The notes below the pieces were generated by a model. The model was not told where the DNA came from. It worked only from the letters and a program-made list of their open reading frames with translations, and searched no databases. From Methylacidiphilum sp. (GTDB taxonomy: Bacteria; Verrucomicrobiota; Verrucomicrobiia; CAIQCK01), in contig DYDC01000003.1 of NCBI GenBank assembly GCA_020718125.1, forward strand, positions 1 to 33,542: a stretch of DNA of 33,542 bases, written 5' to 3'. Positions 1 through 32,024 of this stretch are shown here, piece by piece. Position 1 is the stretch's first letter, and each line of letters starts with the position of its first letter. The position numbers and the translations under genes were made by a program.

Positions 1-35
1 CGTTCGGCGTAGGCGATGAGGGCTTGCAGCATCAT
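1..35 (-). CDS. cas8c: Type I-C Cas8c/Csd1, N-terminal 11 codons (runs off window edge)
   Basis: Minus strand reads ATG ATG CTG CAA GCC CTC ATC GCC TAC GCC GAA (MMLQALIAYAE), resembling Cas8c N-termini. The ATG overlaps the cas5 stop (ATGA), and the position fits the cas3-cas5-cas8c order. Confidence 0.75.
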   Translation of the reverse strand, partial: MMLQALIAYAE

Positions 36-745
36 GGGGCGCCTCCAAGTTGCTTTTTGACTTCGCTCCAGTCGGGCACTGTCAACACGCCGCCCTTGAG
101 CGCGGCGCGGAAGAAGGTGATGCGCGGGTCGGGCTTCTCGATCTTGCCGGGGTCATGCATCTGGTCGAGGTCGAACACGTCGTAGAGCATCAGGCCAAGC
201 TCAGTGTCGGGGTTCGGGTTTGGCTCGACCCGCATGGCGACCTCGTCGGCGAGTTCAAAGTGTGCGGGGAACTCGCGGCAACCGAAGCAGGGCTGGGTGA
301 AGCATTGGCCCTTCTCGGCGCGGCGCTGAAACATGGCGAGGTATTTCACGAGCGAGTCGGGACTGTCGTCCTCGTCGCCTGCGGGCGACTTGCGGCGCGG
401 TTGATTAGCCAGCGGCGTCAGTTCGAGGCCGGCCTCGATGACATACTCGACATCGCGCAACGCGAGTGTGTTCCGTTGAGTGCGATCCTCGTCTGCCAGC
501 AGCGGCTCCGGGTTGCGTGGCGACAGACGGGACTTGACCTCATTGCGCCGGAAGGCGAGGAAGCGGATCGGTTTCTTGACGGCGATGCGGCGGACGCGCC
601 AGCGGAACTGCGGCCGGTAGAGGATGGTTTCCAGCAGGCCGCGCGCGGCGCTGGGCGTGATGACCGGGTAGCTCACGCGCTCGACTTTCATTTCGGGGCG
701 GGTGAAGCAGGCGAGGTCGCCCCAGGTTCTCAGATGAACAATCAT
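32..745 (-). CDS. cas5c: Type I-C CRISPR-associated protein Cas5c (Cas5d)
   Basis: Motifs WGDLACFTRPEMKVERVSYPVITPSAARG, LRDVEYVIEA, GQCFTQPCFGCREFPAHF and LGLMLYD. Confidence 0.96.
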   Translation of the reverse strand: MIVHLRTWGDLACFTRPEMKVERVSYPVITPSAARGLLETILYRPQFRWRVRRIAVKKPIRFLAFRRNEVKSRLSPRNPEPLLADEDRTQRNTLALRDVEYVIEAGLELTPLANQPRRKSPAGDEDDSPDSLVKYLAMFQRRAEKGQCFTQPCFGCREFPAHFELADEVAMRVEPNPNPDTELGLMLYDVFDLDQMHDPGKIEKPDPRITFFRAALKGGVLTVPDWSEVKKQLGGAP

Positions 746-764
746 GGTTTCCTAAGGTTGGACA

Positions 765-2996
765 TCAGCATATCAACTCATCGGCGCCCGGATGGCAGGC
801 ACCGAGGTCGTTATCGTAGTTGGAGTTCCAGACGTAGAAGTTCCAGCCGTCGGCGGGCTGAAAGACCCAGGCTCTGGCCAGCGCGTCCAAGAACTCGCCT
901 TGGTAGAGGTTTACGGAGAACCGTTGAGCGCGGCGGCATTCGTCGGCGGTCAGGTGTTTCTCGCGGCGGAGTTTCTCGGCCAGTTCCGCGCCTTCGTCCC
1001 ATTTGACCAAGACGGCGCGCGTCTCGTCGCCAACCAGCCGGCATTCCTCAGCCGCCTTTGGAAAGTCGAACGCCTTGCTTGCGGCAAAAACTGGGTCAGC
1101 ATCGGCCGAGTCGCGACCAAGCAGCGAGTAAAGCTCGGCGAAATACTTGGCGTAGGTTTCCGGCTGATGCAACGGCGCGCCCGGATGCCGGGCCAGAAAC
1201 TCCTCGGTTTTCGCCGCGGCAACCTTGTAGGCACCGTGAGGCGTGCCGCCGTCGGCTGGGCGAAAAACAATGACCGGACGCGGTTCGGGATGGCGTCCTT
1301 CGCGGTTGCAGCGGCCCGCAGTCTGGACGATGGAATCGAGCGGACCAAGCGCCCGAAAGGCGGTCGGAAAGTCAACGTCCACACCGGCTTCGATGAGTTG
1401 AGTGGAGACGAGCCGCACGGGCAGGCCGCCAGCCAATCGCTCGCGAATGAGATTCAACTTCTCCTGACGATGCGCCGGACAAAGGCGGGCGGAGAGGTGG
1501 AAACGATTGTCTGGCGGCAACAGCCGAAACAATTCGCGCGCGTCCTTCGTGGTGTTGACGACACAGAGGGCTTGCGGATGCCCTGCAATCTTCGCCGCGA
1601 TTTCCGACCACGAGACGCGCTGGTCCGCGGCGGGCAACTCGATGCTTGTGCGGCGCATGGTTTCGGCCATCGCCGAGGGCGCGGATGAAATCTCGGTTGG
1701 TTCCCATCCGTAAGGCAACGCAGCCTTCGCAGCGGTAAAAGCCGGTTGCGTTGCGGTCATGAAGACCGCCGTGACGCCGCAGGGTTCCTGCGCCAGCAGC
1801 CGCACAGCCGACAGCAGCGACGGAACAAGCCGGGGTGGCAGCGTCTGGACTTCATCGAACAGAACCACTGAACGAGCGACGTTGTGCAGCTTGCGGCAGT
1901 CGGAGGGCCGGTTCGAAAAAAGGCTTTCAAAGAACTGGACGCTCGTGGTGACGACGAGTGGCGAGGCCCAGTTTTCGGCTGCCAACCGGGCGCGGCGCAG
2001 TCGTTCCTCCTCGGCGTCCTTGCCTTTGTCCTCCTTCCGCTCGCGCGGCGCGACGGCGCTGTGGTGTTCCAGGACGTAATCCGGCCCAAAGACCGGTTCG
2101 AACAGTTCACGGAACACACGAGCCGTCTGCTCGATGATGCTGGTGTATGGAATGACAATGATAACGCGGCGGAACCGGCGCGGATCATCGGCAGGCAGCG
2201 TCGCGTTGTGGCGGCTGATGTGTTTGAGCGCGAACGCAAGCGAACCGAGCGTCTTGCCGCTACCCGTGGGCGCGGTGAGCGTGAACAAGCCGGGCGGCTT
2301 CCCGGCAGCGGCAAGGCAGTCGGTCAAAAGTTGGCGGCGAAGTTGGTTGATGGGGCCGTCGCAGGGTTTTGCATCAAGAACGGCAAGAAGGCGATTCAAA
2401 GCCTTTGCCTCCTGCAATTGCGGCACCGAACGGGATGCAACTGCAGAAGCGTCGAAATGCCGCTCCGTGTCAAGAAAGTCAGCGTCCACAAGGCAACTGA
2501 AAAGCATCCGTGTGCGGAGTGCGTTGGCGAAATAATCTTTCGCCAATGGCGGTAACTGCGGTGGCAAAGACAGTCCGTCCGCAACAAGACGCGCGACAAG
2601 GCCGTCAATATCCTCCGCGCAGCCCGTGTGCTCCTGCCACCGGTCGGGTCGCACTGCGAGTTGCCTGGTTTGCGCAAAGTCCGTCGCCGCCGGCAGACCG
2701 GCATGATGTCCGTCCACACCATAGGCGACGAGCGCAGCCTTGAAATGTTCCATCGCGAGGACAGCGCCACTGACCCAATGGTTGATCCCGTGAATGGAAG
2801 GATTGTGAAGACGCTGCTGAAACCGCAACGCATACTTGCCGAGATCATGAAGCAGGCCCGCGACCTCGGCTTCGGCTTCCGCACCAAACACCGCGGCAAA
2901 ACCACGAGCGAGTGCGGCTACGGCGCGCAGATGCTCAGCCAGCGGCTGTGGCTCCCCGAGGTCGTTGGCGCTGTGTGCCAGATAGGTTGCAGACAC
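765..2996 (-). CDS. cas3: CRISPR-associated HD nuclease/helicase Cas3
   Basis: HD domain (LAEHL, HDLGK, GHH, LVDADFLD) followed by SF2 helicase motifs (APTGSGKT, DEVQ, MTATQP, STQLIEAGVDVDF, QTAGRCNR). GTG start is preceded by AAGGAGGT. Confidence 0.97.
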   Translation of the reverse strand: MSATYLAHSANDLGEPQPLAEHLRAVAALARGFAAVFGAEAEAEVAGLLHDLGKYALRFQQRLHNPSIHGINHWVSGAVLAMEHFKAALVAYGVDGHHAGLPAATDFAQTRQLAVRPDRWQEHTGCAEDIDGLVARLVADGLSLPPQLPPLAKDYFANALRTRMLFSCLVDADFLDTERHFDASAVASRSVPQLQEAKALNRLLAVLDAKPCDGPINQLRRQLLTDCLAAAGKPPGLFTLTAPTGSGKTLGSLAFALKHISRHNATLPADDPRRFRRVIIVIPYTSIIEQTARVFRELFEPVFGPDYVLEHHSAVAPRERKEDKGKDAEEERLRRARLAAENWASPLVVTTSVQFFESLFSNRPSDCRKLHNVARSVVLFDEVQTLPPRLVPSLLSAVRLLAQEPCGVTAVFMTATQPAFTAAKAALPYGWEPTEISSAPSAMAETMRRTSIELPAADQRVSWSEIAAKIAGHPQALCVVNTTKDARELFRLLPPDNRFHLSARLCPAHRQEKLNLIRERLAGGLPVRLVSTQLIEAGVDVDFPTAFRALGPLDSIVQTAGRCNREGRHPEPRPVIVFRPADGGTPHGAYKVAAAKTEEFLARHPGAPLHQPETYAKYFAELYSLLGRDSADADPVFAASKAFDFPKAAEECRLVGDETRAVLVKWDEGAELAEKLRREKHLTADECRRAQRFSVNLYQGEFLDALARAWVFQPADGWNFYVWNSNYDNDLGACHPGADELIC

Positions 2997-3165: not shown

Positions 3166-3296
3166 AGTCCCGAAAGGGACGGTCGAGAATAGCCCGGCGT
3201 TTCAACGCTGGGTGGGCTGGCAACAAGGGACAAGACCCGTCAGGGGCGGCAGAATCCGACTCATGCAACGCGGCCTTCTGTCGTCCCTACGGGACT
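3166..3296. repeat. REP-like composite palindromic element
   Basis: AGTCCCGAAAGGGACGG (3166) and AGACCCGTCAGGGGCGGCAGA (3233) are imperfect inverted copies of TCTGTCGTCCCTACGGGACT (3277-3296). An internal hairpin, AGCCCGGCGTTTCAACGCTGGGT, lies at 3191-3213. Confidence 0.7.
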
Positions 3297-5806: not shown

Positions 5807-7159
5807 TCAGAGTTTTACCTGCGCGATCTTGATGCCGCGGCGGAGGAACGTGGGCAGGTCAAGGTCTTCGCCGTCATAAACGGTCGGCTCGATCTTGTCG
5901 AACCGGCCCTTGATGTTGACATCGAGGCCGAGGGTCTGTTGCTTGGCGCGCTCGCGCTTGCCGGTGGCGGCCTTGCCGGCCACGCGATCGAGGAATCGCG
6001 CGACGGGACGAGGAGTCGAGCCTGCCGCCACTGGAGGAGCGGGAGCAGGGAGCGTGACAACAGGCTCGCTTGGGGATTTTTCAACGAAGGGGGATGCGGC
6101 CAGATCGCGCTCGGACGGCAGCGGACTGGTGACGGCGGCGCCCGGCGCGCCGCGCGAGGCGACGACCAGCATCGAGAGTCTTCCGGTAAAGTTCTCGTCA
6201 ATCGCCGCGCCCATGAAGATGTGCGGGTTCAGCGTGGCTTTCTTGCGGATGGCGGAGACGGCGCGCTGGACTTCCGCGAGGCCGAGATCGGGACCACCCA
6301 CGAGGCTGACGAGAATGGTCTCCGCCTCGGCGATGATCGCGCCGCCATCGAGCAGCGGGCTGTTGAGCGCCGCGAACGCCGCCGCGGACGCCTTGTCGTC
6401 GCCCTGCCCTTCCCCGATGCCAAACACGGTCCCGTCGTGCCGGCCTTCGAGGGCGCGGCGCAGGTCGTTGAAGTCGAGATTGATGAGGCCTGGCTTGGTC
6501 AGCATCCGCCAGATGCCGCGCACGCCGTCGGCCAGCAGGTCGTCGGCGACACGGAACGCGTCGAGCACGGTGGCGTGTTCTCCAGCCAGCCCAAACAGTT
6601 TGTCATTCGGCACGCACACGACCGCGTCGGCCACGCGCTTGAGTTCGTCGAGGCCGGCGGCGGCCTGGTCGCGGCGGCGGTCGCCCTCAAACTCGAACGG
6701 CAGCGTCACAAACCCCAGCGTGAGCGCGCCGGCCTGTTTCGCCATCTGGGCGATGAACGGGCTGGCGCCGGTGCCGGTGCCACCGCCGAGGCCGGCGGCG
6801 ATGAAAACGAGATCGGTGCTCTTGACCAGTTCCGCGACGCGGTCGCGGTCCTCCATCGCGGCCTTCCGGCCAACGCCGGGGTCGCCGCCCGCGCCGAGGC
6901 CGAAGGTGGTCTTGATGCCCAACTGGAATTTCTCCCCGCAGAGCGACATGGAGAGCGACTGCGAGTCGGTGTTGATGGCAACGAGATGCGGCACGCCGCC
7001 CCCGGATTGGTTCTCCGCGGCGTCGGCCGGGCGCAGTCCGTCCATGGCGATGCGATCCACGGCGTTGCAGCCCGCGCCGCCGACGCCCAGGACCAGAATC
7101 CGGACATTTTTCTCGCGCACGCTCATGGCACTTTCCTCCGATGGCTTGCTGTGGTTCAT
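5807..7159 (-). CDS. ftsZ: Cell division protein FtsZ
   Basis: GVGGAGCN, GLGAGG, GGGTGTG signature, T7 loop GLINLDFND and C-terminal LDLPTFLRR. The start could be ~10 codons later (MSVREK). Confidence 0.98.
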   Translation of the reverse strand: MNHSKPSEESAMSVREKNVRILVLGVGGAGCNAVDRIAMDGLRPADAAENQSGGGVPHLVAINTDSQSLSMSLCGEKFQLGIKTTFGLGAGGDPGVGRKAAMEDRDRVAELVKSTDLVFIAAGLGGGTGTGASPFIAQMAKQAGALTLGFVTLPFEFEGDRRRDQAAAGLDELKRVADAVVCVPNDKLFGLAGEHATVLDAFRVADDLLADGVRGIWRMLTKPGLINLDFNDLRRALEGRHDGTVFGIGEGQGDDKASAAAFAALNSPLLDGGAIIAEAETILVSLVGGPDLGLAEVQRAVSAIRKKATLNPHIFMGAAIDENFTGRLSMLVVASRGAPGAAVTSPLPSERDLAASPFVEKSPSEPVVTLPAPAPPVAAGSTPRPVARFLDRVAGKAATGKRERAKQQTLGLDVNIKGRFDKIEPTVYDGEDLDLPTFLRRGIKIAQVKL

Positions 7160-8405: not shown

Positions 8406-9412
8406 GGGTGTCTTCCTCCAGATGTGGTGTTGCGGACATTGATGATCTGCGGCCCGCTCATGGCGACCGACGCGGCGCCGGGCACGATTGAAGCAGGCGG
8501 AGCGAAATAGGTGACGGGGATGTTCAAGCCGACGGACAGGTCGCACGTGGCGATGATCCGGCCCGCGCGCGAGGGATGCGTGAGGACGATCTTCAGCCGC
8601 TTGAGTTGCGCGGCAAGGTTCTCCGCCGCGAAAGTGACCAGGCCACCCTGCCGCATGACCATCACCAGGAAGCCATCCACCGCCACGTCCACGCGGTCGA
8701 AGTCGAGCAACGGCGCGAACTCCGCACCCTCGCAAAGGTGGACCAGGTCGAGCGCTTTCTGCACCTGCTCGCTCTCGATGCGCCGGCCGGGCTTGATCAG
8801 CTTTGCGTCCACACCGGTCAACAGCGGCAGCCGCACTGCCGGCTTGCCGCCCTCGCCGGTCGCGCCAAACACGCCAACCGGCTTCATCACCACCGCCGTC
8901 GCGTCAATCAGGCAGGCCGTCGGCGGCGCCGTCACGCGCCCCGCCGCGTCGCGGACGGTCTTCGTATAGACCTGCGCGATGGGCACGCGCTCGGAGATGA
9001 TAATGTGAAGCTTGTCGGGCAGCAGTCGCCGGATTTCCGCGCGGCGGATGACGGGGTGCGACTCCAGCGCGGCGCGCACGCCGGGCAGGTCCACCGCGAA
9101 AAGGTTCTGGCCCTCGCGCACGCCGGCCAGATCGACAATCTGCGGGTGCGGCAGCGTGCCGTCGGTCTCGATCTTGATCTCGTTGATGTTGTAGGCCGCG
9201 TTCTCAGTGAGCGACTTCGAGACAAAGAAGGTGAACGCATGATAGAGGCCGAACACCACCAGCCCGGCGGCCATCAGCGTCGCCAGCCAGAGCATCCCGC
9301 GGCCGACCTGCGCCTGCACGCGCTGCGAGCAGCGGACCTTCACGTCGAGCTTGCAGGGGTCGCGCCGCTTGCGGCGGTTTTCACGCGAGTTCTCGTTGAT
9401 CCAGTTGAACAT
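8402..9412 (-). CDS. ftsQ: Cell division protein FtsQ/DivIB
   Basis: Basic N-tail, one TM segment, POTRA region (GQNLFAVDL..IRRLLPDKLHIIISERVPIA). Lies between ddl and ftsA; ATG 9412 overlaps the ddl stop. Confidence 0.92.
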   Translation of the reverse strand: MFNWINENSRENRRKRRDPCKLDVKVRCSQRVQAQVGRGMLWLATLMAAGLVVFGLYHAFTFFVSKSLTENAAYNINEIKIETDGTLPHPQIVDLAGVREGQNLFAVDLPGVRAALESHPVIRRAEIRRLLPDKLHIIISERVPIAQVYTKTVRDAAGRVTAPPTACLIDATAVVMKPVGVFGATGEGGKPAVRLPLLTGVDAKLIKPGRRIESEQVQKALDLVHLCEGAEFAPLLDFDRVDVAVDGFLVMVMRQGGLVTFAAENLAAQLKRLKIVLTHPSRAGRIIATCDLSVGLNIPVTYFAPPASIVPGAASVAMSGPQIINVRNTTSGGRHP

Positions 9413-10323
9413 CAGAGTTTCCCTCCGCGCCTTGCCAGCGCCATCGTCACGATCCGCGAGCACAATTCCTCCAACCCAATGCCGACGGCCGCCGCGGCCT
9501 TCGGCAGCAGGCTCGTCTCGGTCATGCCGGGCAGCGTGTTGTTCTCCAGCACGAACGGCCGGTTGTCGCTGCGCCGCAGCATCACGTCCACGCGCGAATA
9601 ATCCCGGCAGCCCGCCGCGCGGAACGCCGCCAGCGCAACGCGCTGGACCTCCGCCGCGACCGGATCCGGCAGGTTCGCCGGCACGTCATACTCGCTCGCG
9701 CCTTTCGTGTATTTGTTCTGGTAGTCGTAAAAGCCCGCCTTCACGCGGACCTCGACCACCGGGAGCGCCCGGTCGCCGAGAATGCCGACGGTCAGCTCGC
9801 GGCCATCTATGAATTCCTCGACCACCACATGGTCGTCATAGCGGAACGCCTCGTCGAGCGCCGCCGCCATCGCGCCGGCCTCGCGCACCAACGCCACGCC
9901 GACGCTGGAACCCTGCTTCGCAGGCTTCACCACGACCGGCGGGGGCAGCGTCACGCGCCGCGCGCCATTCGCCGTGACGACCTCGTAGCGCGCGCTCGGC
10001 ACGCCGGCCGCCGCGAAAATCTCCTTCGAACGGACCTTGTCGAAGCAATCATAGCTGGCCTGCGCGCCGCAGCCCGTGTAGGCCACGCCGCGTTGCTCCA
10101 GGATGCGCTGGAGCTGGCCGTCCTCGCCGAACGTGCCGTGCAGTGCCAGGAACGCCACCGCCGTGTCCGGCTCCAGCACAAAGCCAGGCCCTTGCACGCC
10201 CACGGCATAGACAATCCAGCCCGCGCGGCGCAGCACCGCCGAGCACGCCGCGCCGGTGCGCAGCGACACGTCGCGCTCCGCGCTCGGGCCGCCCGTCATG
10301 ACCGCTACTTTTTCCTTCTGCAT
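9412..10323 (-). CDS. ddl: D-alanine--D-alanine ligase
   Basis: GGPSAERDVSL, LHGTFGEDG, VKPAKQGSSVG, YDYQNKY, ENNTLPGMT. Confidence 0.97.
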   Translation of the reverse strand: MQKEKVAVMTGGPSAERDVSLRTGAACSAVLRRAGWIVYAVGVQGPGFVLEPDTAVAFLALHGTFGEDGQLQRILEQRGVAYTGCGAQASYDCFDKVRSKEIFAAAGVPSARYEVVTANGARRVTLPPPVVVKPAKQGSSVGVALVREAGAMAAALDEAFRYDDHVVVEEFIDGRELTVGILGDRALPVVEVRVKAGFYDYQNKYTKGASEYDVPANLPDPVAAEVQRVALAAFRAAGCRDYSRVDVMLRRSDNRPFVLENNTLPGMTETSLLPKAAAAVGIGLEELCSRIVTMALARRGGKL

Positions 10324-13300
10324 CAGTCTCCGAGGATGATGACTTCGGTTTCCAACTCGATCCCGCGTTCTTCGCGGGCGCGCTTCTTCACAAACTCGAT
10401 CAGCTTCAACACGTCCTCGGCGGTCGCGCCGCCGTCATTGACGATGAAATTGCCGTGGACCTCGCTGATGCGCGCCTTGCCGATGATCTTGCCCTTGAGG
10501 CCCAGTTCATCAATCAGCTTGCCCGCCGGAATCTCCTTCGGGTTCTTGAATACGCAACCCGCGCTCGATTCGTGTGGCTGGTTGTGCCAGCGCTTCTCCT
10601 GAAAAGTCTTCAGCCGGCTTTCGATGACTTCCGGCGCGGCGGGCGTCGCCTTGAACACCGCGCCCAGCGCGACGTGGTCGCGGAACAACGGGCAGCCGCG
10701 ATATTCAAAGCGGATCTCGCCCGCGGACTTCTCCTCGACGTTGCCCGCGTAGTCCATGAACCGCACGCGCTCGACGACCTCGAACGTCCACTGCCCCATC
10801 GCGCCCGCGTTCATCCGCAACGCGCCGCCAACCGAGCCGGGGATGCCCTCCAGAAACTCCAGCCCGGTAAGATGCGCCCGTTTCGCGGCCATCACCACAT
10901 CGCGCAGCTTCGCGCCCGCGCCGGCAGCAATGCGGTCGCCGCTGACCTCGATCTTCGACAGGAACGGCCGCGTGAGCCGGATGACGACGCCTTTGACGCC
11001 GTGGTCACGCGCCAGCAGGTTCGAGCCGCGGCCGATGATGAAGAACGGCAGTCGCTCGGCGTGGCAGTAGCGCAGCACGCGGCCGAGGTCGTCCTCGCCG
11101 GCCGGCTCGCACCAGAACTGCGCGGTGCCGCCCACTTGGAACGTCGTCTTTTTCGCCATCGGTTCGTTGCGCGACAGCGCCGTCTCCGGCGCGAGCATCG
11201 CGCGCAGTTCCGCGTGAATCTGATCTTCGGTCTTCATCGGCTGGCCCGCCTTGTCGCCGACCTGACCCGCGCGGACCCGCCGCGCGACTTCGTCGGCCAC
11301 CTTCGTAATGTCGCCCGCGCCGAGCACGGCAATGATGTCGCCCGGCTGCGCCGCCGCCAGCAGCCGCCCGGCAACACGGTCGAGGTCCGGCTCGAATTCC
11401 ACGCCGGCATGGCCGCTGGCTTTGACGGCCTCGAAAATAGTCCGCCCGCTGACGCCCTCGATGGCCGGCTCGCTCGCCGCATAGACCCCGGTCAACACCA
11501 GCTTGTCCGCGCCCGCGAACGCGCGGCCGAAGCCGGACGCGAGCAGCTTGGTCCGCGTGTAGCGGTGCGGTTGGAAGGCGGCGACAATCCGCTTGCGGCC
11601 GACGGCCCGCAGCGCCTCCAGCGTGGCGCGCAGCTCCGTCGGATGGTGCGCGTAGTCGTCCACGACGAGGTAGTTGGCGTCCTCGAACTTCACATCGAGC
11701 CGGCGGTCGGCCCCGCGGAACGTCGCGAGCGCCGCGGCGATCCGGTCGAACTTCAAACCGAGCGTCAACCCGACCGCGACGGCGGCTGTGGCGTCGGAGA
11801 CGTTGTGTTTGCCGGGAATCGCCAGCATGATGTCGCCGAGTTGCCTGCCGTTGTGGCGGACGGCGAAGCGAACGCCGAACTTCTCCGTCCGCACGTCCGT
11901 GGCGCGGCAGGACGCGTCCGGCGAGAAGCCGAACGAGACGGCGCGCGGATGCGCGGAGCAGAGCTTCGCGGCGTTGGCGTCGTCGGCGCAGTAGAAGACA
12001 TGGTCGTGCGTGTTCTCAATGAACTCGCCGAAGGCGTCGAGGATGGCCGGCAGGTCGCGGTAGTAGTCGAGGTGCTCCTCCTCGATGTTGAGCACGACAC
12101 CGTGGGTCGGGGCGTATTCCACCAACGTGCCGTCGCTCTCGTCGCACTCGGCAACGAAGAACTCGCCGGCGCCGTCGCCGGCATTGCCGCCGATGGAGGC
12201 GACGTAGCCGCCGACGCTGAACGACGGATCGTGGCCGCCCGCCTTGAGGACGCGGGCGATCATCGCGGTGGTGGTGGTCTTGCCGTGCGTGCCCGCGACA
12301 CAAATGGAGGCCGGCGCTTTCTTGCCGGGCAGGAACGGCGTCTGCATCACGGCGGAAAGCATCCGCGCGCGGCGCACGAGCGGCACGCCGGCCGCCTTGG
12401 CCGCGCGTAACTCAGGGTTGTCCTTCTGGATCGCGCTCGAATGGATGACGAGGTCCGGCTTCCCGATGTTGGCCGCGTCGTGGCCGGTGAAGACTGTGCC
12501 GCCGCGGGCGCGCAGCGCGTCGAGTTCCTTGCCGGCGCACAGGTCGGAGCCGGTGACGCGATGGCCGCGGGCGAGGAGCAGCCGGGCGATGCCGCTCATG
12601 CCGCAACCCGCGATGCCGACGAAGTGGACCGCGCAGGCGCTCTCGCCGAGCAGGCGGATGATGTCGGCGATTTCGATCTCGCGACGGGCGATGCCCGGCT
12701 CGGCCACGCCAGCGACCTGCGCAAGCAGCGTCGCGATGGCCGCCGCGGCATCGGGCCGGCGCAGGGCGGCCATCTTCTCGGCCATGTCGCGGCGCGTGGC
12801 GCTGACAAGCATTTCCTCCACGGCGCGGGCGAGCATCTCACCGGAGGTTTCGGCCTGCGGCATGACGCGGGCGCCGCCGTTGCGGGCGGCGAACTGGGCG
12901 TTGAAAAGCTGGTGATTGTCGGCAGCGTCCGGGAACGGGACGAGGATGGCCGGCAGGCCGAACCACGCCAGTTCGGCAAGGCTCGCCGCGCCGGCGCGAG
13001 CGACGGCCAGCGTCGCGGCGCTGTAGGCGAGTTCCATCTCCTTCTGGAAGGGACGGACGACGGCCTTGAAGCCGGTGGTTTCCCACGCGGCGCGAACTCG
13101 CTCGAAATCAGCCTCGCCGGTGAGGTGGATGAACTGAAGCTGGCGCGCCAGATGTTTCAAGTGCGGCAGCGCGGCCAGCATGAGGTCGTTGAGGCCGCGA
13201 GCGCCCTGGCTGCCGCCAACGACCAGCACGGTCTGGCGGCGCGTCTCAAGGCCAAGCTGCCAGCGGGCGTCGCCGGCGGGGCGTTTGCGGAGCGAGGCGC

Positions 13301-13790
13301 GGACGGGCGTGCCGGCATTGACGACGCAACGGCCGGGCAGACGGGCGGCGCATTCGTCCATGCCGACGGCGACGGCGGCGACCCAGCGCGCGAGAAGGCG
13401 CGTGGCGCGGCCGGGAATGGCGTTGGAGTCGTGCAGGACGACCGGGACGCGGCGACGGCGCGCGGCAATGACCGGCGGGGCGGAGGTGAAGCCGCCCATG
13501 CCGAGAACCACGTCTGGCTCGAAGTCGTCGAAGAGCTGCCCGCAGAGCCGTGTGGCGCGGAGTTGTTCGGCCAGAAACGTGATGATGCGTGGCGATGTCC
13601 ACGGCGGCAGGCCGATGCCGGGAATGGCGCGGACCTCGATGGCGGCGGCGAGTTGGAAGGCGTGGCGGTCAATCTCCTTTTCGGAGACGAGCAGCAGGAC
13701 GCGATGGCCGCGGAGACGCAGCGCCTCCGCCACCGCCAGCCCCGGGAAGAGGTGGCCGCCCGTGCCGCCGCATGCGATCGCGACGTTCAT
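10323..13790 (-). CDS. murG-murC-murB: Trifunctional fusion MurG-MurC-MurB (1155 aa)
   Basis: One uninterrupted ORF. MurG: GGTGGH, GMGGF, GGSQGA, RAGA, HQLFNA. MurC: HFVGIAGCGMSG, GTHGKTTT, ECDESDG, DDYAHHPTE, FQPHRYTRT. MurB: GRGSNLL, GIPGSVGGALRMNAGA, SAGCVFKNP, HGNFIVN, LETEV. Confidence 0.95.
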   Translation of the reverse strand: MNVAIACGGTGGHLFPGLAVAEALRLRGHRVLLLVSEKEIDRHAFQLAAAIEVRAIPGIGLPPWTSPRIITFLAEQLRATRLCGQLFDDFEPDVVLGMGGFTSAPPVIAARRRRVPVVLHDSNAIPGRATRLLARWVAAVAVGMDECAARLPGRCVVNAGTPVRASLRKRPAGDARWQLGLETRRQTVLVVGGSQGARGLNDLMLAALPHLKHLARQLQFIHLTGEADFERVRAAWETTGFKAVVRPFQKEMELAYSAATLAVARAGAASLAELAWFGLPAILVPFPDAADNHQLFNAQFAARNGGARVMPQAETSGEMLARAVEEMLVSATRRDMAEKMAALRRPDAAAAIATLLAQVAGVAEPGIARREIEIADIIRLLGESACAVHFVGIAGCGMSGIARLLLARGHRVTGSDLCAGKELDALRARGGTVFTGHDAANIGKPDLVIHSSAIQKDNPELRAAKAAGVPLVRRARMLSAVMQTPFLPGKKAPASICVAGTHGKTTTTAMIARVLKAGGHDPSFSVGGYVASIGGNAGDGAGEFFVAECDESDGTLVEYAPTHGVVLNIEEEHLDYYRDLPAILDAFGEFIENTHDHVFYCADDANAAKLCSAHPRAVSFGFSPDASCRATDVRTEKFGVRFAVRHNGRQLGDIMLAIPGKHNVSDATAAVAVGLTLGLKFDRIAAALATFRGADRRLDVKFEDANYLVVDDYAHHPTELRATLEALRAVGRKRIVAAFQPHRYTRTKLLASGFGRAFAGADKLVLTGVYAASEPAIEGVSGRTIFEAVKASGHAGVEFEPDLDRVAGRLLAAAQPGDIIAVLGAGDITKVADEVARRVRAGQVGDKAGQPMKTEDQIHAELRAMLAPETALSRNEPMAKKTTFQVGGTAQFWCEPAGEDDLGRVLRYCHAERLPFFIIGRGSNLLARDHGVKGVVIRLTRPFLSKIEVSGDRIAAGAGAKLRDVVMAAKRAHLTGLEFLEGIPGSVGGALRMNAGAMGQWTFEVVERVRFMDYAGNVEEKSAGEIRFEYRGCPLFRDHVALGAVFKATPAAPEVIESRLKTFQEKRWHNQPHESSAGCVFKNPKEIPAGKLIDELGLKGKIIGKARISEVHGNFIVNDGGATAEDVLKLIEFVKKRAREERGIELETEVIILGD

Positions 13791-13809
13791 CGTCAAAGTT
13801 TTCCTGTCA

Positions 13810-15000
13810 TCAAACCGCCGTGGCCCGCCGCGCGAATGGACCGGCCGGCACATGCTCCGGCGCGCCCGCGTGTCGGGCGACGCTGAGGAGCAGGCCGACG
13901 CAGGTCAGCATGACGCAGAGATTGGAGCCGCCGTAGCTGATGAACGGCAACGGCAAGCCCTTGTTGGGCATCATCGAGGTCACAACCGCCAGGTTGATCA
14001 AGGCTTGAAACCCGATGAGCGAGACGATGCCCATGCCGAGCAGACAACCGTAGAGTTCCCGCGCACGCGTGCTGACATACACGCCGACGGCAATCAAGAC
14101 GACGAACGCGACCAGCAGCGCGGCCATGCCGACGAGGCCCAGTTCCTCGCCAATGATCGGCGCAATGAAGTCACTGGAGGCATACGGCAGGTAATGCTCC
14201 TTGGTGCGGCTCTGGCCCAGGCCGAGGCCCCACAGGCCGCCGGTGCCGAAGGCGAGCTGGGCCTGCCATTGCTGGAGACCGGTGCCGAGCTTGTTGTGTT
14301 CGAGGTCGAGGAACTCGACGATGCGGCGATAGCGCACGGGGTCGTGGAAGAGATACCAGCCCAGCATCGCCGCGCCGCCCGTGAAGCTCGGGAACAACAC
14401 CCGCCATCGCACGCCACCGAGGAACATGACACAGAAGCCGGCCATCGCGATGAGCACCGAGGTGCCCACGTCGGTCTCGCACAGGACGGGGCCGACAATC
14501 GCGCCCACAAGGAACAGCGGCACGAGGATGCCGCGTTTCCATTCATCCCATTTCTGCCGGAACAGGAGGAGTTTCGTCAGCCGGACTTCCTGCACATCGC
14601 GCTGCCAGCGGTCCAAGTAGTGCGCCAGCATCAGGATGACGGCCAGCTTGCCCAGTTCGGAAGGTTGGAGCGTGATCGAGCCGAATTGGAGCCAGCGGCG
14701 CGAGCCATTGATCATCCTGCCAATGCCGGGCACCAGGACGACCAGACAGAGGGCAAACGCGGCGAGCCAGACCAGCCAGATGAGTTTCCGCCAGCGGTTG
14801 TAGTCCACCGCCGCGGTGACCAGCATCGCGACGAGGCCGATGCCGATCCATGCGAGTTGGCGGTTGAGGAACCAGAGTGGGTTGTGGTCGTATTGAGCGG
14901 AGCGGATGGCGTAGGGGTAACTGGCGCTGTAGAGCATCACCAGACCGAAGCTCAGCAGGAACAAGACACAGACAAGTATCGCGACGACGCTTTTCTTCAA
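13810..15000 (-). CDS. ftsW: Peptidoglycan polymerase FtsW (SEDS family)
   Basis: Multi-TM protein with NGSRRW, QPSELGK, LPYASSDFI, KGLPLPFISYGGS. TTG start. Confidence 0.96.
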   Translation of the reverse strand: MKKSVVAILVCVLFLLSFGLVMLYSASYPYAIRSAQYDHNPLWFLNRQLAWIGIGLVAMLVTAAVDYNRWRKLIWLVWLAAFALCLVVLVPGIGRMINGSRRWLQFGSITLQPSELGKLAVILMLAHYLDRWQRDVQEVRLTKLLLFRQKWDEWKRGILVPLFLVGAIVGPVLCETDVGTSVLIAMAGFCVMFLGGVRWRVLFPSFTGGAAMLGWYLFHDPVRYRRIVEFLDLEHNKLGTGLQQWQAQLAFGTGGLWGLGLGQSRTKEHYLPYASSDFIAPIIGEELGLVGMAALLVAFVVLIAVGVYVSTRARELYGCLLGMGIVSLIGFQALINLAVVTSMMPNKGLPLPFISYGGSNLCVMLTCVGLLLSVARHAGAPEHVPAGPFARRATAV

Positions 15001-15091
15001 CGGACCTCAGTTTGCATGTTGTCGGTGACCGCCCCAACCGCCGATCTGGTCTGGGGAAGCCCTCCGCGGTTCAATGTTCAAACATCAGGCT

Positions 15092-15907
15092 CTACGGATT
15101 GCCGGGCACGGGGCCAGGGGGCGGCGTGCTTGGCGCACTGGGCGGCGGCTGCAACGCCGGCGGCGTGGCCAGTCCCGGCGCGGCGCCTTCCGGAGCGCCG
15201 GATGTCGGGACGGTCGGCGCCGGAACAGCTTCCGGCATCGGGATGCCACCGGTCGCAGGAGCCGCACCTGCCGCGGCGGGCGCGGCAGCGCCACCGGGCA
15301 CGTTCAGCTTCTGGCCGATCTGCAATTTCTTCGGGTCAAGCCCCGGATTCGCATCCATCAGGGCTTGCGGCTTCACGCTGAGTTTCTTCGCGATCTTGTC
15401 CGGCGTGTCGCCGGTCGCGACGACATACTGGCCATCGGGGTTCATGGCGCCAGCTCCGGCTGGCGACGCGGCCGCCTTCTTCGGGGCCGTCTTTTTCTTC
15501 ACGGCGGGCTTCGGCGCGGCGAGGGCCTTCTGGCCGCTCTCCTGCGGCGTGGGAATCTTCAGCTTCTGGCCGACCCGGATGACGTCGCCGGAGAGGTGAT
15601 TGGCGTTTTTGATCGCGGTGACGGTGGTTCCGTATTTGTGCGCGATGCCTGAGAGCGTTTCGCCCTTGGCGACACCGTGGGTCGTTTCCTTCAGTGCCAC
15701 CGGCAACGCCGGCTTGGTCTCCACCGGCGGCAGGACGGGCGGAGGCGGGGGCGCCGTCTCCGGCAACGGGGCTATGGGCGTCGCGCCGGGTGGCGGGCCG
15801 GCAGCCACCTTGGACTTCGGTTTGCAGCTTTCAAACACCATGAAGCTGCCAATCACCGCCACGTGCAATCCGGCAATCAGGCCGATCTTCCACAACTTCG
15901 AGTTCAT
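15092..15907 (-). CDS. Membrane-anchored protein with two LysM domains and Pro/Ala-rich linkers
   Basis: N-terminal hydrophobic segment; LysM1 HGVAKGETLSGIA..GQKLKIP; LysM2 YVVATGDTPDKIA..GQKLNVP. GGAG RBS precedes ATG 15907. Confidence 0.92.
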   Translation of the reverse strand: MNSKLWKIGLIAGLHVAVIGSFMVFESCKPKSKVAAGPPPGATPIAPLPETAPPPPPVLPPVETKPALPVALKETTHGVAKGETLSGIAHKYGTTVTAIKNANHLSGDVIRVGQKLKIPTPQESGQKALAAPKPAVKKKTAPKKAAASPAGAGAMNPDGQYVVATGDTPDKIAKKLSVKPQALMDANPGLDPKKLQIGQKLNVPGGAAAPAAAGAAPATGGIPMPEAVPAPTVPTSGAPEGAAPGLATPPALQPPPSAPSTPPPGPVPGNP

Positions 15908-15971
15908 GTTCGTTCTCCGTTCGTCTGCGTCTTGTTCCTGGTTCCTGTCGATTGTTGACTCGCGAAATTTG

Positions 15972-17321
15972 TCAGCCGGACGCGAGCGCCCGGACGATCT
16001 GTTTGAACCGCTCTCCGCGGTCTTCATAGTCGCGAAACATATCAAAGCTAGAGCACGCTGGCGAGAGCAATACCACGTCACCAGGGGCCGCCGCCCGCCG
16101 GGCCTGCTCCACCGCGTCCTGCAACGAGCCGGCCTTCACGCAACGCACCGCCGACGACCACGCGGCGGCCAGCTTGTCGCGCGTTTCGCCGATCAACACC
16201 GCCAGCTTCACCTTCCGCCGCAGCGTGTCGTTCAGCTCCGCAAAATCAAAACCCTTGTCCTTGCCGCCGGCGATCAACACCACCGCCTCGCGGAAACCCG
16301 CCAGCGCTTTCTCGACCGCGTCCACGTTGGTGGCCTTCGAGTCGTTCACATAGCGCACGCCGCCGATCTCCGCCACCAGTTCACAGCGGTGCGGCAGCGG
16401 CCGGCAATCCGCAATCGCCGCCCGCGCCGACGCCAGCGGCACACCAAAGGCCATCGCGGTTGCCAGCGCGGCCATGATGTTCTCCGCGTTATGCGGCCCG
16501 CGCAACCGCGTCGCCGTCATGTCGAGCAACTCGCCTTCGCCTTCGCCTGCGATCTTCGTGCCGTCCAACCAAAACGCGCAGCCCGGCCGATGGCTCCGCG
16601 CGCTGAACCACACCTGCCGCGGCCCATCCGGCCCGCGCAGCGCGGCAAACCTTCCGCGGCAATCCTCGTTGACCACCGCCCAGTCGTCCGCCCGCTGGTT
16701 GGCGAAGATCCGCTCCTTCGCCGCCGCATACTCGCGCAGCGACGGATAACGGTCGAGATGGTCCGGCGTCACGTTGAGCATCACGCTCACCCGCGGCCGG
16801 AACTGTTCGATGCGTTCCAATTGGAAAGAACTGACTTCGAGCACCGCCACGTCGAGCGGCTCGCCACGCGCCAGCAACTCGCAAAACGCCAGCCCGATGT
16901 TGCCCGCCGCTGTCGTCCGCTTGCCGCCAGCCTGCAACACCCGCGCGCACAACCCGGTGGTCGTCGTCTTCCCGTTGGTGCCCGTGACGGCCACGACCGG
17001 GCAGGCGCAAAAGCGGAAACCGAGCTCCAACTCGCTGATGATCGGAACGCGGGCCGCCTCCAACTCGCGAACAAGCGTGTTTTCCGGTGGAATTCCCGGA
17101 CTTAACACCACCAAGTCCGCTGCCAGCGGGGCCGGTCTTGTCACGCCCAACCGCACATCCACGCCCCGCTCGCGTAGCGACGACGCCACCGTTTGTAGGG
17201 CATCGCCGTCCGCATTGTCAACGGCGATGACGCGCGCGCCGCGGGCCGCCAGCAGCCTTGCCGCCGCCGCGCCGCTCCGGCCCAGGCCAAGCACCAACGC
17301 CGTTTGACCGTTCATATTCAT
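15972..17321 (-). CDS. murD: UDP-MurNAc-L-Ala--D-glutamate ligase
   Basis: GLGRSG, TGTNGKTTT, EVSSFQLE, DHLDRY, NDSKATN, SPACSSFDMF. Confidence 0.98.
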   Translation of the reverse strand: MNMNGQTALVLGLGRSGAAAARLLAARGARVIAVDNADGDALQTVASSLRERGVDVRLGVTRPAPLAADLVVLSPGIPPENTLVRELEAARVPIISELELGFRFCACPVVAVTGTNGKTTTTGLCARVLQAGGKRTTAAGNIGLAFCELLARGEPLDVAVLEVSSFQLERIEQFRPRVSVMLNVTPDHLDRYPSLREYAAAKERIFANQRADDWAVVNEDCRGRFAALRGPDGPRQVWFSARSHRPGCAFWLDGTKIAGEGEGELLDMTATRLRGPHNAENIMAALATAMAFGVPLASARAAIADCRPLPHRCELVAEIGGVRYVNDSKATNVDAVEKALAGFREAVVLIAGGKDKGFDFAELNDTLRRKVKLAVLIGETRDKLAAAWSSAVRCVKAGSLQDAVEQARRAAAPGDVVLLSPACSSFDMFRDYEDRGERFKQIVRALASG

Positions 17322-25035: not shown

Positions 25036-25485
25036 CTAAATCCCCAACTTCTGCATCATCGTGCCGACGGCCTCGCGCTTGTCCTGCACCGCCGCCACGT
25101 GCCGCGAAGGCGACCATATCTCGAACTGCGACCGGTGGCCGCTCGCGGTGAAAATGATCACGCTGTCAATCCCGGCGTGCTTGACTTCCTCCGCCGAGAG
25201 ACTCATCCGCCCCTGGCTGTCCATGGACACGCGACGCGCCATGTCATTCAGCACCAGGCCAAAATCGCGGTGCTGGTCCGGCTCGGGAAATTCCTGGACC
25301 AGATTGCTGTGAAGCTCGTCGAACTGCTCCTGCGTCATCACCGCGAGATACGACCGCGGATGCTGCACGATGATGAGTTCCTGGGCGCCCCTGGGCCGGA
25401 GCGATTGCGGCACGATGACGCGGTTCTTGTCATCCAGCGTGTGCCGGAAAACGCCGCGGACCTGAATTGTCTGTCGCACCGCCAT
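25036..25485 (-). CDS. mraZ: Division/cell wall cluster transcriptional repressor MraZ
   Basis: Two DxxxR motifs (HTLDDKNRVIVP, MDSQGRMSL) and FEIWS. First gene of the dcw cluster. Confidence 0.92.
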   Translation of the reverse strand: MAVRQTIQVRGVFRHTLDDKNRVIVPQSLRPRGAQELIIVQHPRSYLAVMTQEQFDELHSNLVQEFPEPDQHRDFGLVLNDMARRVSMDSQGRMSLSAEEVKHAGIDSVIIFTASGHRSQFEIWSPSRHVAAVQDKREAVGTMMQKLGI

Positions 25486-25519
25486 GTCTGTCCTATGCAC
25501 TCCTCCAAGCTCACCTTGG

Positions 25520-25561
25520 CTCCACTGAATGGGATGATACTCCACTTGCCACCACCGTCAA
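25520..25561 (-). promoter_or_regulatory. dcw promoter with MraZ-binding repeats
   Basis: Minus strand TTGACG-N16-TATCAT (25561-25534). GTGGTG (25555-50), GTGGAG (25545-40) and GTGGAG (25525-20) fall on a 10-bp register, matching the known GTGG-type MraZ repeat spacing. Confidence 0.75.
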
Positions 25562-29615: not shown

Positions 29616-30557
29616 CTACGCCGCGGGGCGGAAGTGTTTCTTGATCCAGAACAGGTAGCCGAGCATCAGCAGGAACGACGTGATCGTCCAGACCGACATC
29701 GTCTGACTGGAGATGAAGCCCATCTGCTTGATCTGTTGCTCCGGGTAACCCATTTGGCGATACAGATCCATGATGTCCACGCGCAGGAACGTGACCGCCG
29801 TCGAGAGACCAAACAGGACAAGCACCACGACGCAAGTCAGCCAGGCCGACGCCTTCAAGCGGTAAAGGCCCAGCGCCAGCCAGATCCAAACCACACCCAT
29901 CGCCACGAAGAAGATGGATGCAGCCGGCCCGGAGACCAGCAGGCCAAAGAATGGCATTACACTCTTGAAGCTCAGCGGCATGGCGAACAGCGACAGCGAG
30001 CCAACGGCAAGCCACAGCGATGCCGCGAGCACGGGCAGCGGGCACGCATCGGTCCAGCGCGCGACCGGATCGCGCGCCTCGCACGTCGCCCGCACGTGCC
30101 TGCTGCCGTAGAACAGCGCCAACGTGGCGGGAACAAACAGAAAGACAATGACCAGGATGACGCCGGCGATGGCCATCCCGATCCAGATCGTCGGCGCGTC
30201 AGGCTGGCTGGCCATCATCCGCGGCATGATGAACGCGCACGCCACCATCGAGATGATGCCGACCACCAACCAACTCCACGCAAAGACCAGCATCAACGCC
30301 CGCGCCCAGCGGCGGCACCGGATGGAACCGATGCCGAGCCAGACGAACGCCACGGCGATGGCGGCATAGAACACCGCCCCCGGGATGATCATCTGGTAAT
30401 TCGCCGGCGTGCCGCTCATCTGCGCCTGCATTGTCTGGCCGAAGAACATGGCGGGCGCCAGCAGCGCGCACAGGCAGCCGAGCAGGACCTCCAGCACCCC
30501 AAAGAGGATCAAACCGGCGCGACGGTCTTTGAATGATGTCATTGCGGACTGGCTCAT
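29616..30557 (-). CDS. Hypothetical polytopic membrane protein (~8 TM)
   Basis: Repeated hydrophobic segments in two halves joined by CEARDP..WTDACP. AAAGGAG RBS upstream. Confidence 0.85.
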   Translation of the reverse strand: MSQSAMTSFKDRRAGLILFGVLEVLLGCLCALLAPAMFFGQTMQAQMSGTPANYQMIIPGAVFYAAIAVAFVWLGIGSIRCRRWARALMLVFAWSWLVVGIISMVACAFIMPRMMASQPDAPTIWIGMAIAGVILVIVFLFVPATLALFYGSRHVRATCEARDPVARWTDACPLPVLAASLWLAVGSLSLFAMPLSFKSVMPFFGLLVSGPAASIFFVAMGVVWIWLALGLYRLKASAWLTCVVVLVLFGLSTAVTFLRVDIMDLYRQMGYPEQQIKQMGFISSQTMSVWTITSFLLMLGYLFWIKKHFRPAA

Positions 30558-30658
30558 GATGGACTCCTTTCCAAAGCAGCGACGCGAAGACTAGGCAACA
30601 TGGCCGGTCGAGGCAACGCAAATCACGGCGGAAAACCAGACTCATCCAAACCACAGCT

Positions 30659-31990
30659 AAGGTCAGCCGCATCCCGCAGAAGAAAACGCTCACCATCAAG
30701 CCGATCCGCAACCGCCAGACGCCCGCGCTGGAATACCGCGAGCCGTTCACGTTCGACAGCTACGACGCCGACTGGGCCGTCCGTAACAAGTCCAACGGTC
30801 ACGCCACACGGCTCGATGAGAAGCGCGGCGGCAAGATCATCTGCAAGGGCTTTGTCCACACGTTCTATCCGCTGGTGCCGCCGGAGAAGTATTTCGCGGC
30901 GCACCCGGAGTATTTCTCCGAGATCACAGGCAAGCGGACGCACGACCACGCGCAGCTCCGCCTGACCTATCCCGACGTGGTGGACATCGTCACGCAGCGC
31001 GTGCTGGAGCAACTCAAGGGCGCACCGCCGCGGACCATCGTCTCCGCGTCGCAGAACGACTGGCACGGCCAGTGCCCGTGCGCAAAATGCAAGGCCATCG
31101 AGGACGAGGAGGGCAGCCCGTCGGCGCCGCTGCTGCGGTTCGTCAACCATGTCGCCGATCGCGTCGAGCGCGCGCGGCCGGACGCGGCGATTGACACGAC
31201 GGCCCGCCAATACACGCGCAAGCCGCCGCGCCTCGTGAAGCCGCGGCCGAACGTCATCGTGCGGCTGTGCAGCATCGAGTGTTCGTTCTCGCATCCGCTC
31301 GGCGGCGCTGGGCAGAACCGCAAGTTCTGTCGAGGACATCGAGGGCTGGTCGAAGATATGCCAGCGGCTTTACACCTGGGACTACGTCACCGACTTCGCG
31401 CATTACGTCCAGCCGCACCCAAACCCGCGGGTGCTCCAGCCCAACATCCAGTGTTTCATCGCCAACGGCGTGAAGGGCATCTTCGAGCAGGGCAGTTACC
31501 AGTCGCCCGGCGGCGAACTGCGGGAACTGCGCTCGTGGCCGCTCGCGAAACCGCTCTGGAACCCGCGCGCCAACGTCAACGCGTTGATGAACGCCTTTCT
31601 CGCCGGCTACCACGGCCCGGCCGCGCCGTTCATCCGCCGCTACATGGACCTAATGCACGACGAGGTCACGAGGACGAAGCACGAGCTGAAATACTACCCG
31701 CCGACGACCGCGCCGTTCCTGTCGCAACCGGTCATCGCGAAGGCCGACGCGCTGTTTGCCTCGGCGGAGAAGACTGTCGCGAAAGACGCCGCGCTGCTGC
31801 ATCGCGTGAAGGCGGCCCGGCTGCCGGTCCATTACGTGATGATGCAGCGCGAGAAGGCGTGGAAGCGCAGCGGCGCAAAGTGGCAGCCGTCGCTGTCGGG
31901 CCACGCGCTGCGCGAACGGTTCTTCGAGATCGCCGCAGCGGAGAAGATGACGACAATCAACGAAGGCCGCTCAATGGACGACTTCCGCAC
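30659..31990 (+). pseudogene. DUF4838-family (glycoside hydrolase-like) protein, 5'-truncated and frameshifted
   Basis: VSRIP..PALEYRE, VHTF..VPPEKYFAAHPEYF, SQNDW..CPC..C, VRLCSIECSFSHP, WDY, GIFEQG. No start codon or N-terminal domain; an extra T at ~31328 shifts the frame. Confidence 0.8.
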
Positions 31991-32024
31991 CGCCACGCGG
32001 CTCCCTGACCGGCGCGCGCCGTTG

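Follow-up and report, generated by a model that had tools for sequence, protein, structure and literature searches.

A murG-murC-murB gene fusion within the division and cell wall cluster of a Verrucomicrobiia clade

The stretch of DNA analyzed here, hereafter the window, comprises positions 1 to 33,542 of contig DYDC01000003.1 (33,542 nucleotides [nt]; forward strand) from a Methylacidiphilum sp. assembly of the Verrucomicrobiota (GCA_020718125.1). A complete division and cell wall (dcw) cluster lies on its minus strand, and inside this cluster we found a single open reading frame (ORF) in which the coding sequences of murG, murC and murB are joined (10323..13790, minus strand). The fused coding sequence comprises 1155 codons followed by a TGA at 10323-10325, and a 1155-residue database protein (P0002) is identical to its product. 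The coordinates of the original prediction were correct; the strand, which it left unstated, is the minus strand. Counted from its first ATG, the ORF is slightly longer (1176 amino acids; 10323..13853, minus strand). We prefer the ATG at 13790, located 21 codons inside this ORF, which is used by the database homologues and is preceded by an AGGA-like stretch. The fusion frame is the longest open run of the window, with 1193 codons from stop to stop compared to 876 for the runner-up. The window is GC rich (0.61 to 0.70), and the chance of 1155 stop-free codons, estimated from the base composition of the region, is about 9e-11; the longest open run in 1,000 shuffled sequences had a mean length of 186 codons and was at most 484 codons long. 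GC content at third codon positions is even across the three modules (0.86 to 0.91). No Pfam match was found for any of the seven overlapping or antisense ORFs of 139 to 733 amino acids, and none of the 32 other ORFs of the window is a second murG, murC or murB.

The domain content of the fusion was determined with Pfam profiles, which matched in the order GT28_N, GT28_C, Mur_ligase, Mur_ligase_M, Mur_ligase_C, FAD_binding_4 and MurB_C (E values from 1e-18 to 2e-37). All three modules also passed the NCBIfam equivalog cut-offs. Together with near end-to-end alignments to solved structures, these matches show that all three modules are complete. One MurB position, equivalent to S229 of the Escherichia coli enzyme, is a cysteine. 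The MurG module (residues 1-357; 12720..13790, minus strand) contains the N- and C-terminal GT28 domains (PF03033 and PF04101) and belongs by family to the lipid II glycosyltransferases. It scored 273.1 bits against TIGR01133 (murG) over residues 1-355 (cut-off, 250.25), and the solved MurG chain 3s2u (365 residues) matched residues 2-360 of the fusion over its residues 4-355. Positions G13 to H18 (the G-loop GGTGGH), S191 and Q192 (GGSQG), E268, Q288 and N291 of E. coli MurG (RefSeq numbering) are identical in the window. We take the G-loop, the GGSQG loop and the Glu, Gln and Asn of the C-domain to be functional sites of E. coli MurG, the C-domain trio presumably binding UDP-N-acetylglucosamine. 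MurG is a peripheral membrane enzyme, and this module is predicted both to associate peripherally with the membrane and to act as the transferase that converts lipid I into lipid II.

The MurC module (residues 372-850; 11241..12677, minus strand) is a putative UDP-N-acetylmuramic acid (UDP-MurNAc):L-alanine ligase (PF01225, PF08245 and PF02875) that reached 456.1 bits against TIGR01082 (murC; cut-off, 335.1). Its best solved match was the MurC chain 9ir5 (E value, 4.7e-90): positions 10-458 of a 475-residue MurC piece (residues 377-851 of P0002) aligned with residues 11-456 of this 460-residue chain. The window shares with E. coli MurC the residues G126 to T134 (the P-loop with K130), E174, D176 to D179, H199, R326 and R327 as well as D350, D351, Y352, H354 and H355 of the DDYxHHP motif (E. 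coli numbering), and the same active-site columns are invariant in alignment A1. Directly before the P-loop, the module carries an insert of eight residues (residues 484-491; 12318..12341, minus strand). In alignment A2, this insert was present in 7 of 131 rows, which are exactly the rows of the window's clade of fused homologues described below, and 114 rows showed the short form. Neither E. coli MurC nor chain 9ir5 has the insert, and the other triple-fusion lineages lack it as well.

The MurB module (residues 873-1155; 10326..11174, minus strand) is assigned as a UDP-N-acetylenolpyruvoylglucosamine reductase (PF01565 and PF02873), with 316.9 bits against NF010480 (cut-off, 259) and 208.9 bits against TIGR00179 (cut-off, 144.5). 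Its best structural matches were 3tx1 (E value, 2.2e-58) and 1hsk (E value, 4.2e-53), and positions 16-303 of a 303-residue MurB piece (residues 853-1155 of P0002) aligned with residues 33-320 of the 322-residue chain 3tx1. Thus, the module is of the short, Gram-positive-like MurB type, similar to that of Staphylococcus aureus and Listeria. E325 of E. coli MurB is conserved in the window, the region of R159 did not align cleanly and the position of S229 is occupied by a cysteine (residue 1079; 10554-10556, minus strand). We assume that S229 and E325 are both catalytic in E. coli MurB, S229 presumably being the general acid that donates a proton. The cysteine thus opens the question of whether one module of the fusion, MurB for example, might be dead and serve only as an anchor or regulator, and the MurB activity of the Verrucomicrobium spinosum MurC-MurB fusion was indeed unmeasurable in vitro (Naqvi et al. 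2016, PMC4803751). However, cysteine is common at this position in the lineage: we counted 160 Cys and 33 Ser among 193 motif-bearing stored MurB proteins of the Verrucomicrobiota type, and Cys in 26 of 34 motif-bearing loci, including a locus labeled V. spinosum. The actinobacteria-like triple fusions retain Ser. Moreover, the fusion of V. spinosum is able to complement a murB mutant of E. coli (PMC4803751), and MurB, which scores above its equivalog cut-off, is the best conserved module within the window's clade, with a mean identity over 15 pairs of 0.85 compared to 0.79 for MurC and 0.72 for MurG. Such values suggest purifying selection on all three modules. A dead module therefore seems quite improbable to us, and we read MurB as presumably active, because the cysteine is usual in the lineage and the V. 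spinosum fusion complements the murB mutant. As a matter of speculation, an oxidation-prone cysteine might explain why the activity of that fusion could not be measured in vitro.

We then considered the two junctions between the modules. Junction 1, the MurG-MurC linker (residues 358-371; 12678..12719, minus strand), contains no Met, and its sole start-like codon is a GTG at codon 362 (12705-12707), in agreement with the original prediction. The further claim that MurC lacks a start of its own also held, since codon 372, at the ancestral MurC start position (12675..12677, minus strand), reads ATC in the DNA. In the alignments, the resulting Ile372 occupies the position of residue 1 of unfused MurC-MurB proteins (P0012 to P0016) and of Met1 of E. 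coli MurC. The tail of an unfused MurG (P0482) aligned along junction 1, where it met the N-terminus of a MurC-MurB protein (P0014). The linker is thus MurG's own C-terminal tail joined to the native N-terminus of MurC, whose Met has become Ile. Since the MurG tail meets the first residue of MurC, nothing was inserted. Junction 1 is the least conserved part of the fusion (50% identity), and the linker has the same length in all seven aligned rows of the clade. The repeats found around the junction were all short (10 to 30 nt), GC rich and direct or inverted; no unusual RNA structure was detected at the junction (z-score, 0.02), and there were no tandem repeats in 10000-14000.

Junction 2, the MurC-MurB linker (residues 851-872; 11175..11240, minus strand), retains the predicted Met, encoded by an ATG at codon 852 (11235-11237). 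One frame might nevertheless give rise to several proteins if internal starts or proteolysis released MurC-MurB or MurB alone. Among the 56 internal in-frame start-like codons, ATG 852 had the best Shine-Dalgarno (SD)-like score (-7.2), so that free MurB might also be made, and this codon is Met in eight of the nine clusters of the window's clade. It could be a relic of a start for free MurB or a start that is still used. The idea that a conserved internal Met represents a relic MurB start was not supported across the family, in which the linker carried a Met in 80 of 239 proteins compared to 27% expected by chance. At junction 1, GTG 362 had an average SD-like score (-3.3, compared to a mean of -2.86 and a standard deviation of 1.96 for the 56 codons). 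The true starts of the dcw cluster scored from +0.8 to -9.3, and the score is therefore a weak guide; with weak scores common at true starts, initiation at GTG 362 is conceivable. On the other hand, the ancestral MurC start has become ATC, and neither promoter-like sites (0 found, 0.2 expected) nor terminator-like sites (5 found, 4.2 expected) exceeded chance level in 9300-15200. Moreover, complementation and a cleavage assay led to the judgment that the V. spinosum MurB/C protein probably acts as a fusion (PMC4803751). We thus consider it unlikely that the frame is mainly a source of separate proteins.

Homologues of the fusion were collected by a word-indexed search of 5.8 billion cluster representatives. 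Among the 120 homologues listed, 10 contained all three domain sets and 110 were MurC-MurB proteins. Nine of the triple fusions form the window's clade, which consists of nine clusters at 90% identity (P0002 to P0010) with 36 member sequences from NCBI, JGI, ENA and Logan. One of them is the window's own protein, P0002, whose cluster was seen on 4 contigs; its eight clade relatives are 71 to 74% identical and 1138 to 1156 amino acids long, and two of these were named by NCBI as proteins of Verrucomicrobiia metagenome-assembled genomes (MAGs). The tenth (P0011) shares 46% identity, and its linker is long and rich in Gly, Ala and Pro. A further protein of 386 amino acids, labeled partial by NCBI (P0123; 91% identity), reads through junction 1 and ends 15 residues beyond it. 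Apart from this protein, the closest unfused MurG was at most 54% identical in a search restricted to shorter proteins (120 listed), and these 120 matches included no reverted, split form from the clade.

These observations bear on the possibility that the fusion is an assembly or sequencing artifact, in which a one-base error erased the murG stop codon or shifted the frame. Such an error could mimic a fusion, since murG and murC overlap in relatives, and a frame change is present elsewhere on the contig. Indeed, a DUF4838 gene (30875-32903, plus strand) is broken between about 31330 and 31431 into two overlapping frames, with profile positions 69-219 in one frame and 253-325 in another, and the second frame stays open into a GFO/IDH/MocA oxidoreductase. 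The region 30001-33000 contains no run of 6 or more identical bases, and the break is either a pseudogene or an indel error. The triple fusion, however, was recovered in nine clusters from several sources, at 71 to 100% identity and with the same linker length, and no unfused MurG at 55 to 100% identity was found among the 120 matches listed. In addition, the MurC start codon itself has been replaced, which a frameshift error would not do. An assembly error is very unlikely because of the clade clusters, the read-through by the partial protein and the lack of a closer unfused MurG in that search, and the fusion is in all probability a real, inherited gene.

The dcw cluster that contains the fusion extends from mraZ, its first gene (25036-25545, minus strand), to ftsZ, its last (5807-7159, minus strand), in the order mraZ, mraW, an unassigned small ORF, ftsI, murE, murF, mraY, murD, a LysM-domain gene, ftsW, the fusion, ddl, ftsQ, ftsA and ftsZ. 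The upstream neighbor, ftsW (13810..15000, minus strand), was identified by the Pfam profile FTSW_RODA_SPOVE (E value, 1.4e-89); in the DNA, its TGA (13810-13812) precedes the murG ATG by 19 nt. The downstream neighbor, ddl (9412..10323, minus strand; Pfam Dala_Dala_lig_C/N), begins with an ATG that shares one base with the stop codon of the fusion (TGATG), with a GGAG just upstream and an SD-like score of -6.6. Between murD and ftsW, the LysM-domain gene (15092-16081, minus strand) encodes a product in which two LysM domains are combined with a long tail rich in Pro and Ala. A LysM match was found at the same position of the cluster in 13 related Verrucomicrobiota loci, so that this gene looks lineage-typical for the dcw cluster. 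Elsewhere in the window, a Cas5d-family gene and a Cas3 gene (HD plus helicase) are located at the left edge (32-2996, minus strand), and a clustered regularly interspaced short palindromic repeat (CRISPR)-Cas locus thus probably continues beyond it. The only Rfam match of the window was an Acido-Lenti-1 small RNA (3166-3212, minus strand; 46.2 bits, gathering threshold 37, E value 1.5e-7), and no tRNA genes were found in it.

In a further step, the origin of the triple architecture was investigated by comparison with related loci. In 24 such species-genome loci, with start codons picked by a nearest-to-expected rule, the murG stop codon overlapped the murC-murB start by 4 nt in 8 cases and by another length in 10, and the two genes were 0 to 155 nt apart in the remaining 6. 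In one locus (L017), murG and murC-murB lie in the same frame with a gap of 0 nt. One lost stop codon or one small indel would therefore be enough to fuse these overlapping or abutting genes. Three further loci (L038, L041 and L074) looked fused at first sight and were rejected: their murC-murB frame is open over 1157 to 1188 codons, with the best MurG match in another frame.

We also searched 1.84 billion representatives at 50% identity exhaustively with HMMER. This search listed 150 proteins, whose architecture we assigned by a domain test. Five of these were MurG-MurC-MurB (P0004, P0122, P0159, P0174 and P0219), and 11 were MurG-MurC, 3 MurG-MurB, 1 MurC-MurB-Ddl and 1 RNase III-MurC-MurB. 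A search seeded with P0159 revealed 17 further triple clusters among 120 listed, nested among MurG-MurC fusions; the source names of this lineage include Ilumatobacteraceae and "Acidobacteria bacterium" MAGs. We built a tree of the MurC domain from 143 rows (43 of the 236 stored MurC-MurB proteins; every other stored protein whose MurC domain is of full length, comprising 14 MurG-MurC-MurB, 11 MurG-MurC and 2 MurC-only proteins; and 73 loci). In this tree, the window's nine-row clade (support, 100) lies inside the Verrucomicrobiota MurC-MurB proteins, within a set of 30 rows (21 MurC-MurB and 9 triple fusions; support, 98). The triple label requires 5 changes on this tree, of which well-supported branches make at least 4 unavoidable. 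Similarly, the clade fell among MurC-MurB proteins in a 34-row tree of the MurC-MurB region built with IQ-TREE, and this tree requires 3 changes to the triple form within the Verrucomicrobiota. A single clade of the 9 triple rows was rejected by the approximately unbiased (AU) test (log-likelihood difference, 221.5; p = 2.4e-90), a result that is formally weakened since the tested group was named after the first tree had been seen. Thus, these data indicate at least three origins of the triple architecture in the Verrucomicrobiota and a further one in an actinobacteria-like lineage, in which an existing MurG-MurC fusion evidently acquired MurB. Altogether, the searches yielded about 30 triple-fusion clusters at 90% identity, distributed over at least 4 lineages. 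The recurrence would be explained by the smallness of the change that suffices.

The other architectures encountered in these searches are observations in their own right. The MurG-MurB fusions (P0130, P0180 and P0207) are 690 to 701 amino acids long and consist of GT28_N, GT28_C, FAD_binding_4 and MurB_C, with no Mur-ligase part. They match a gene order found in five loci (L009, L018, L020, L036 and L056), in which murB directly follows murG and murC is elsewhere or was not seen. In the portions of the literature available, this pairing was found only as a gene order and not described as a fusion. The MurC-MurB-Ddl triple (P0144) has 1071 amino acids. The protein in which RNase III and a double-stranded RNA-binding domain are joined to MurC-MurB (P0258; 1102 amino acids) may be a gene-calling or assembly join.

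The ease with which such fusions arise raises a serious rival to any functional explanation, namely that the fusion resulted neutrally from the overlap of stop and start codons in a packed operon and is harmless and tolerated owing to the flexible MurG tail, with no benefit from tethering. The overlap of murG and murC-murB in 18 of 24 relatives' loci and the same-frame locus with the 0-nt gap are consistent with this explanation, as are the repeated origin within the Verrucomicrobiota and the existence of MurG-MurB, MurC-MurB-Ddl and MurG-MurC fusions. Moreover, the linker, the least conserved part of the protein, varies from about 13 to 70 residues between domain envelopes across lineages. 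In contrast, the fusion is fixed across a clade in which MurG identity falls to 64 to 68%, without a reversion among the shorter matches listed; the linker length is invariant within the clade, and the rows with the eight-residue MurC insert are exactly those of the fused clade. These three features lean mildly towards constraint and prove no benefit, and the points against neutrality do not prove an advantage. We therefore give the neutral explanation a substantial weight, somewhat short of an even chance.

We next compared the window's gene with known Mur chimeras. Five major types have been distinguished, MurE-MurF, MurC-Ddl, MurC-MurB, MurG-MurC and MurD-FtsW, and MraY-MurG is also mentioned; this classification places the MurC-MurB type in Verrucomicrobia and the MurG-MurC type in Actinobacteria (Shirakawa et al. 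2023, PMC10214165). Studies characterizing the MurC-MurB fusion of Verrucomicrobium showed that it is essential (PMC4803751, PMC12283558). The background on which the original prediction drew, with MurC-MurB fusions in Verrucomicrobia and MurC-Ddl fusions in Chlamydiae, is in line with these and related papers (PMC10214165, PMC4803751, PMC6420597). The MurB/C protein of V. spinosum resembles the window's gene in its MurC-then-MurB order and in the gene order ftsW-murG-murB/C-ddl-ftsQ (PMC4803751), and it shares the cysteine at the MurB S229 position. The MurC-MurB part of the window's protein is nested inside this Verrucomicrobiota family in both trees. The binary proteins, however, lack both the N-terminal MurG and the eight-residue insert, and in the window the MurC start has been lost. 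The MurG-MurC chimeras, found mainly in Actinobacteria, show the same join of a MurG C-terminus to a MurC N-terminus, here too linking enzymes of non-consecutive pathway steps (PMC10214165). None of the 11 MurG-MurC proteins grouped with the window's clade in the MurC tree, and we regard their origin as independent and the likeness as convergent.

Two other chimeras are also fusions of neighboring dcw genes. MurE-MurF of Bordetella pertussis occurs in linker-less head-to-tail forms and has been cited in support of a MurG-binding Mur complex (PMC10214165, PMC6420597). It joins two soluble ligases of consecutive steps, whereas the window's gene joins three modules including a membrane-associated transferase. 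The MurC-Ddl protein of Chlamydia (cited in PMC4803751 and PMC10214165) likewise fuses MurC with the next gene of the cluster in a member of the Planctomycetes-Verrucomicrobia-Chlamydiae group; it is binary and has another partner, whereas ddl is separate in the window, with the one-base overlap. Like these natural chimeras, the window's gene encodes at least two enzymes of peptidoglycan precursor synthesis in one frame that is conserved among relatives. A MurG-MurC-MurB protein was not found described in the available portions of the literature, which did not include the supplement of PMC10214165, where minor types are possibly listed. Triple-fusion proteins are already present in public databases under the names of single or two enzymes. 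The original prediction left open how rare the combination is: it is uncommon and was not found described, yet it is not unique, given the clusters and lineages counted above. The triple fusion thus extends the known binary Mur chimeras and is rare, yet already in databases.

Taken together, we consider it probable that the window's gene arose by the in-frame joining of murG to the phylum-typical murC-murB gene in one clade of Verrucomicrobiia, of genus or family level. Several observations weigh against this reading or against its functional implications. In a scan of species genomes, of which the best 80 of 600 stretches were retained (best identity, 59%; the window's clade was not among them), murC and murB shared one frame in 31 of the 80 best loci, and murG was in the same open frame as murC in none. 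MurG evolves somewhat faster relative to MurC in the fused clade, with a divergence ratio of 1.33 compared to 1.03 to 1.30 in 8 unfused pairs of similar divergence. Separate copies of murG, murC or murB may exist beyond the 33.5-kb window, and the single chain in the cell is a prediction from the gene. To these are added three points already described: the cysteine at the MurB S229 position, the strong SD-like score of ATG 852 and the broken DUF4838 frame, which shows that indels or pseudogenes occur on this contig. Finally, a catalytic benefit of joining the non-consecutive enzymes MurG and MurC is not obvious (PMC10214165).

If the gene is translated as a single polypeptide, its product would have about 120 to 125 kDa, as estimated from its length. 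The membrane-binding N-domain of MurG would then keep MurB and MurC, which catalyze steps 2 and 3 of the pathway, on the inner side of the membrane, the site of lipid II synthesis by MurG. The fusion would set a 1:1:1 ratio of the enzymes and would pre-assemble part of the proposed Mur complex, in line with the proposal that MurG acts as a scaffold and with the co-localization of MurB and MurC with MurG in Caulobacter (PMC6420597). A local transfer of UDP-MurNAc from MurB to MurC would be possible. The product of MurC would still have to leave for the separate MurD, MurE, MurF and MraY enzymes before returning to MurG as lipid I. The covalent metabolon of the original prediction, a membrane-tethered arrangement, is thus a hypothesis, in which MurB and MurC catalyze consecutive steps and MurC and MurG do not. 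With four separately encoded steps between these two enzymes, the gain would lie in co-localization and dosage and not in a MurC-to-MurG channel. Plausible gains therefore include co-localization, co-folding and a fixed stoichiometry. A more specific reading is that the protein forms a rigid, membrane-bound Mur sub-assembly, in which the MurG tail docks MurC-MurB in a fixed pose, the insert at residues 484-491 provides a contact and the MurB cysteine is redox sensitive; we hold this to be doubtful. If it were true, the protein would be a ready-made, stabilized sample for studying how MurG scaffolds the soluble Mur enzymes, and the cysteine would make the first committed reductive step redox sensitive at the membrane.

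Whether MurG organizes a physical Mur complex at the membrane is a standing question, and natural chimeras (MurE-MurF, MurC-Ddl, MurC-MurB and MurG-MurC) have so far been the main genomic argument for it and also the main structural handle on it. Fusions of dcw neighbors are well known, the parts of the present one are ordinary and its benefit is unproven. A conserved chimera that includes MurG would nonetheless give a natural covalent sample of MurG, a ligase and a reductase for structural, stoichiometric and inhibitor studies. The repeated origin of the architecture suggests that a MurG C-terminus and a MurC N-terminus can be joined with almost no spacer while an essential pathway survives, and this near-spacerless joining would constrain models of how the enzymes are placed at the membrane.

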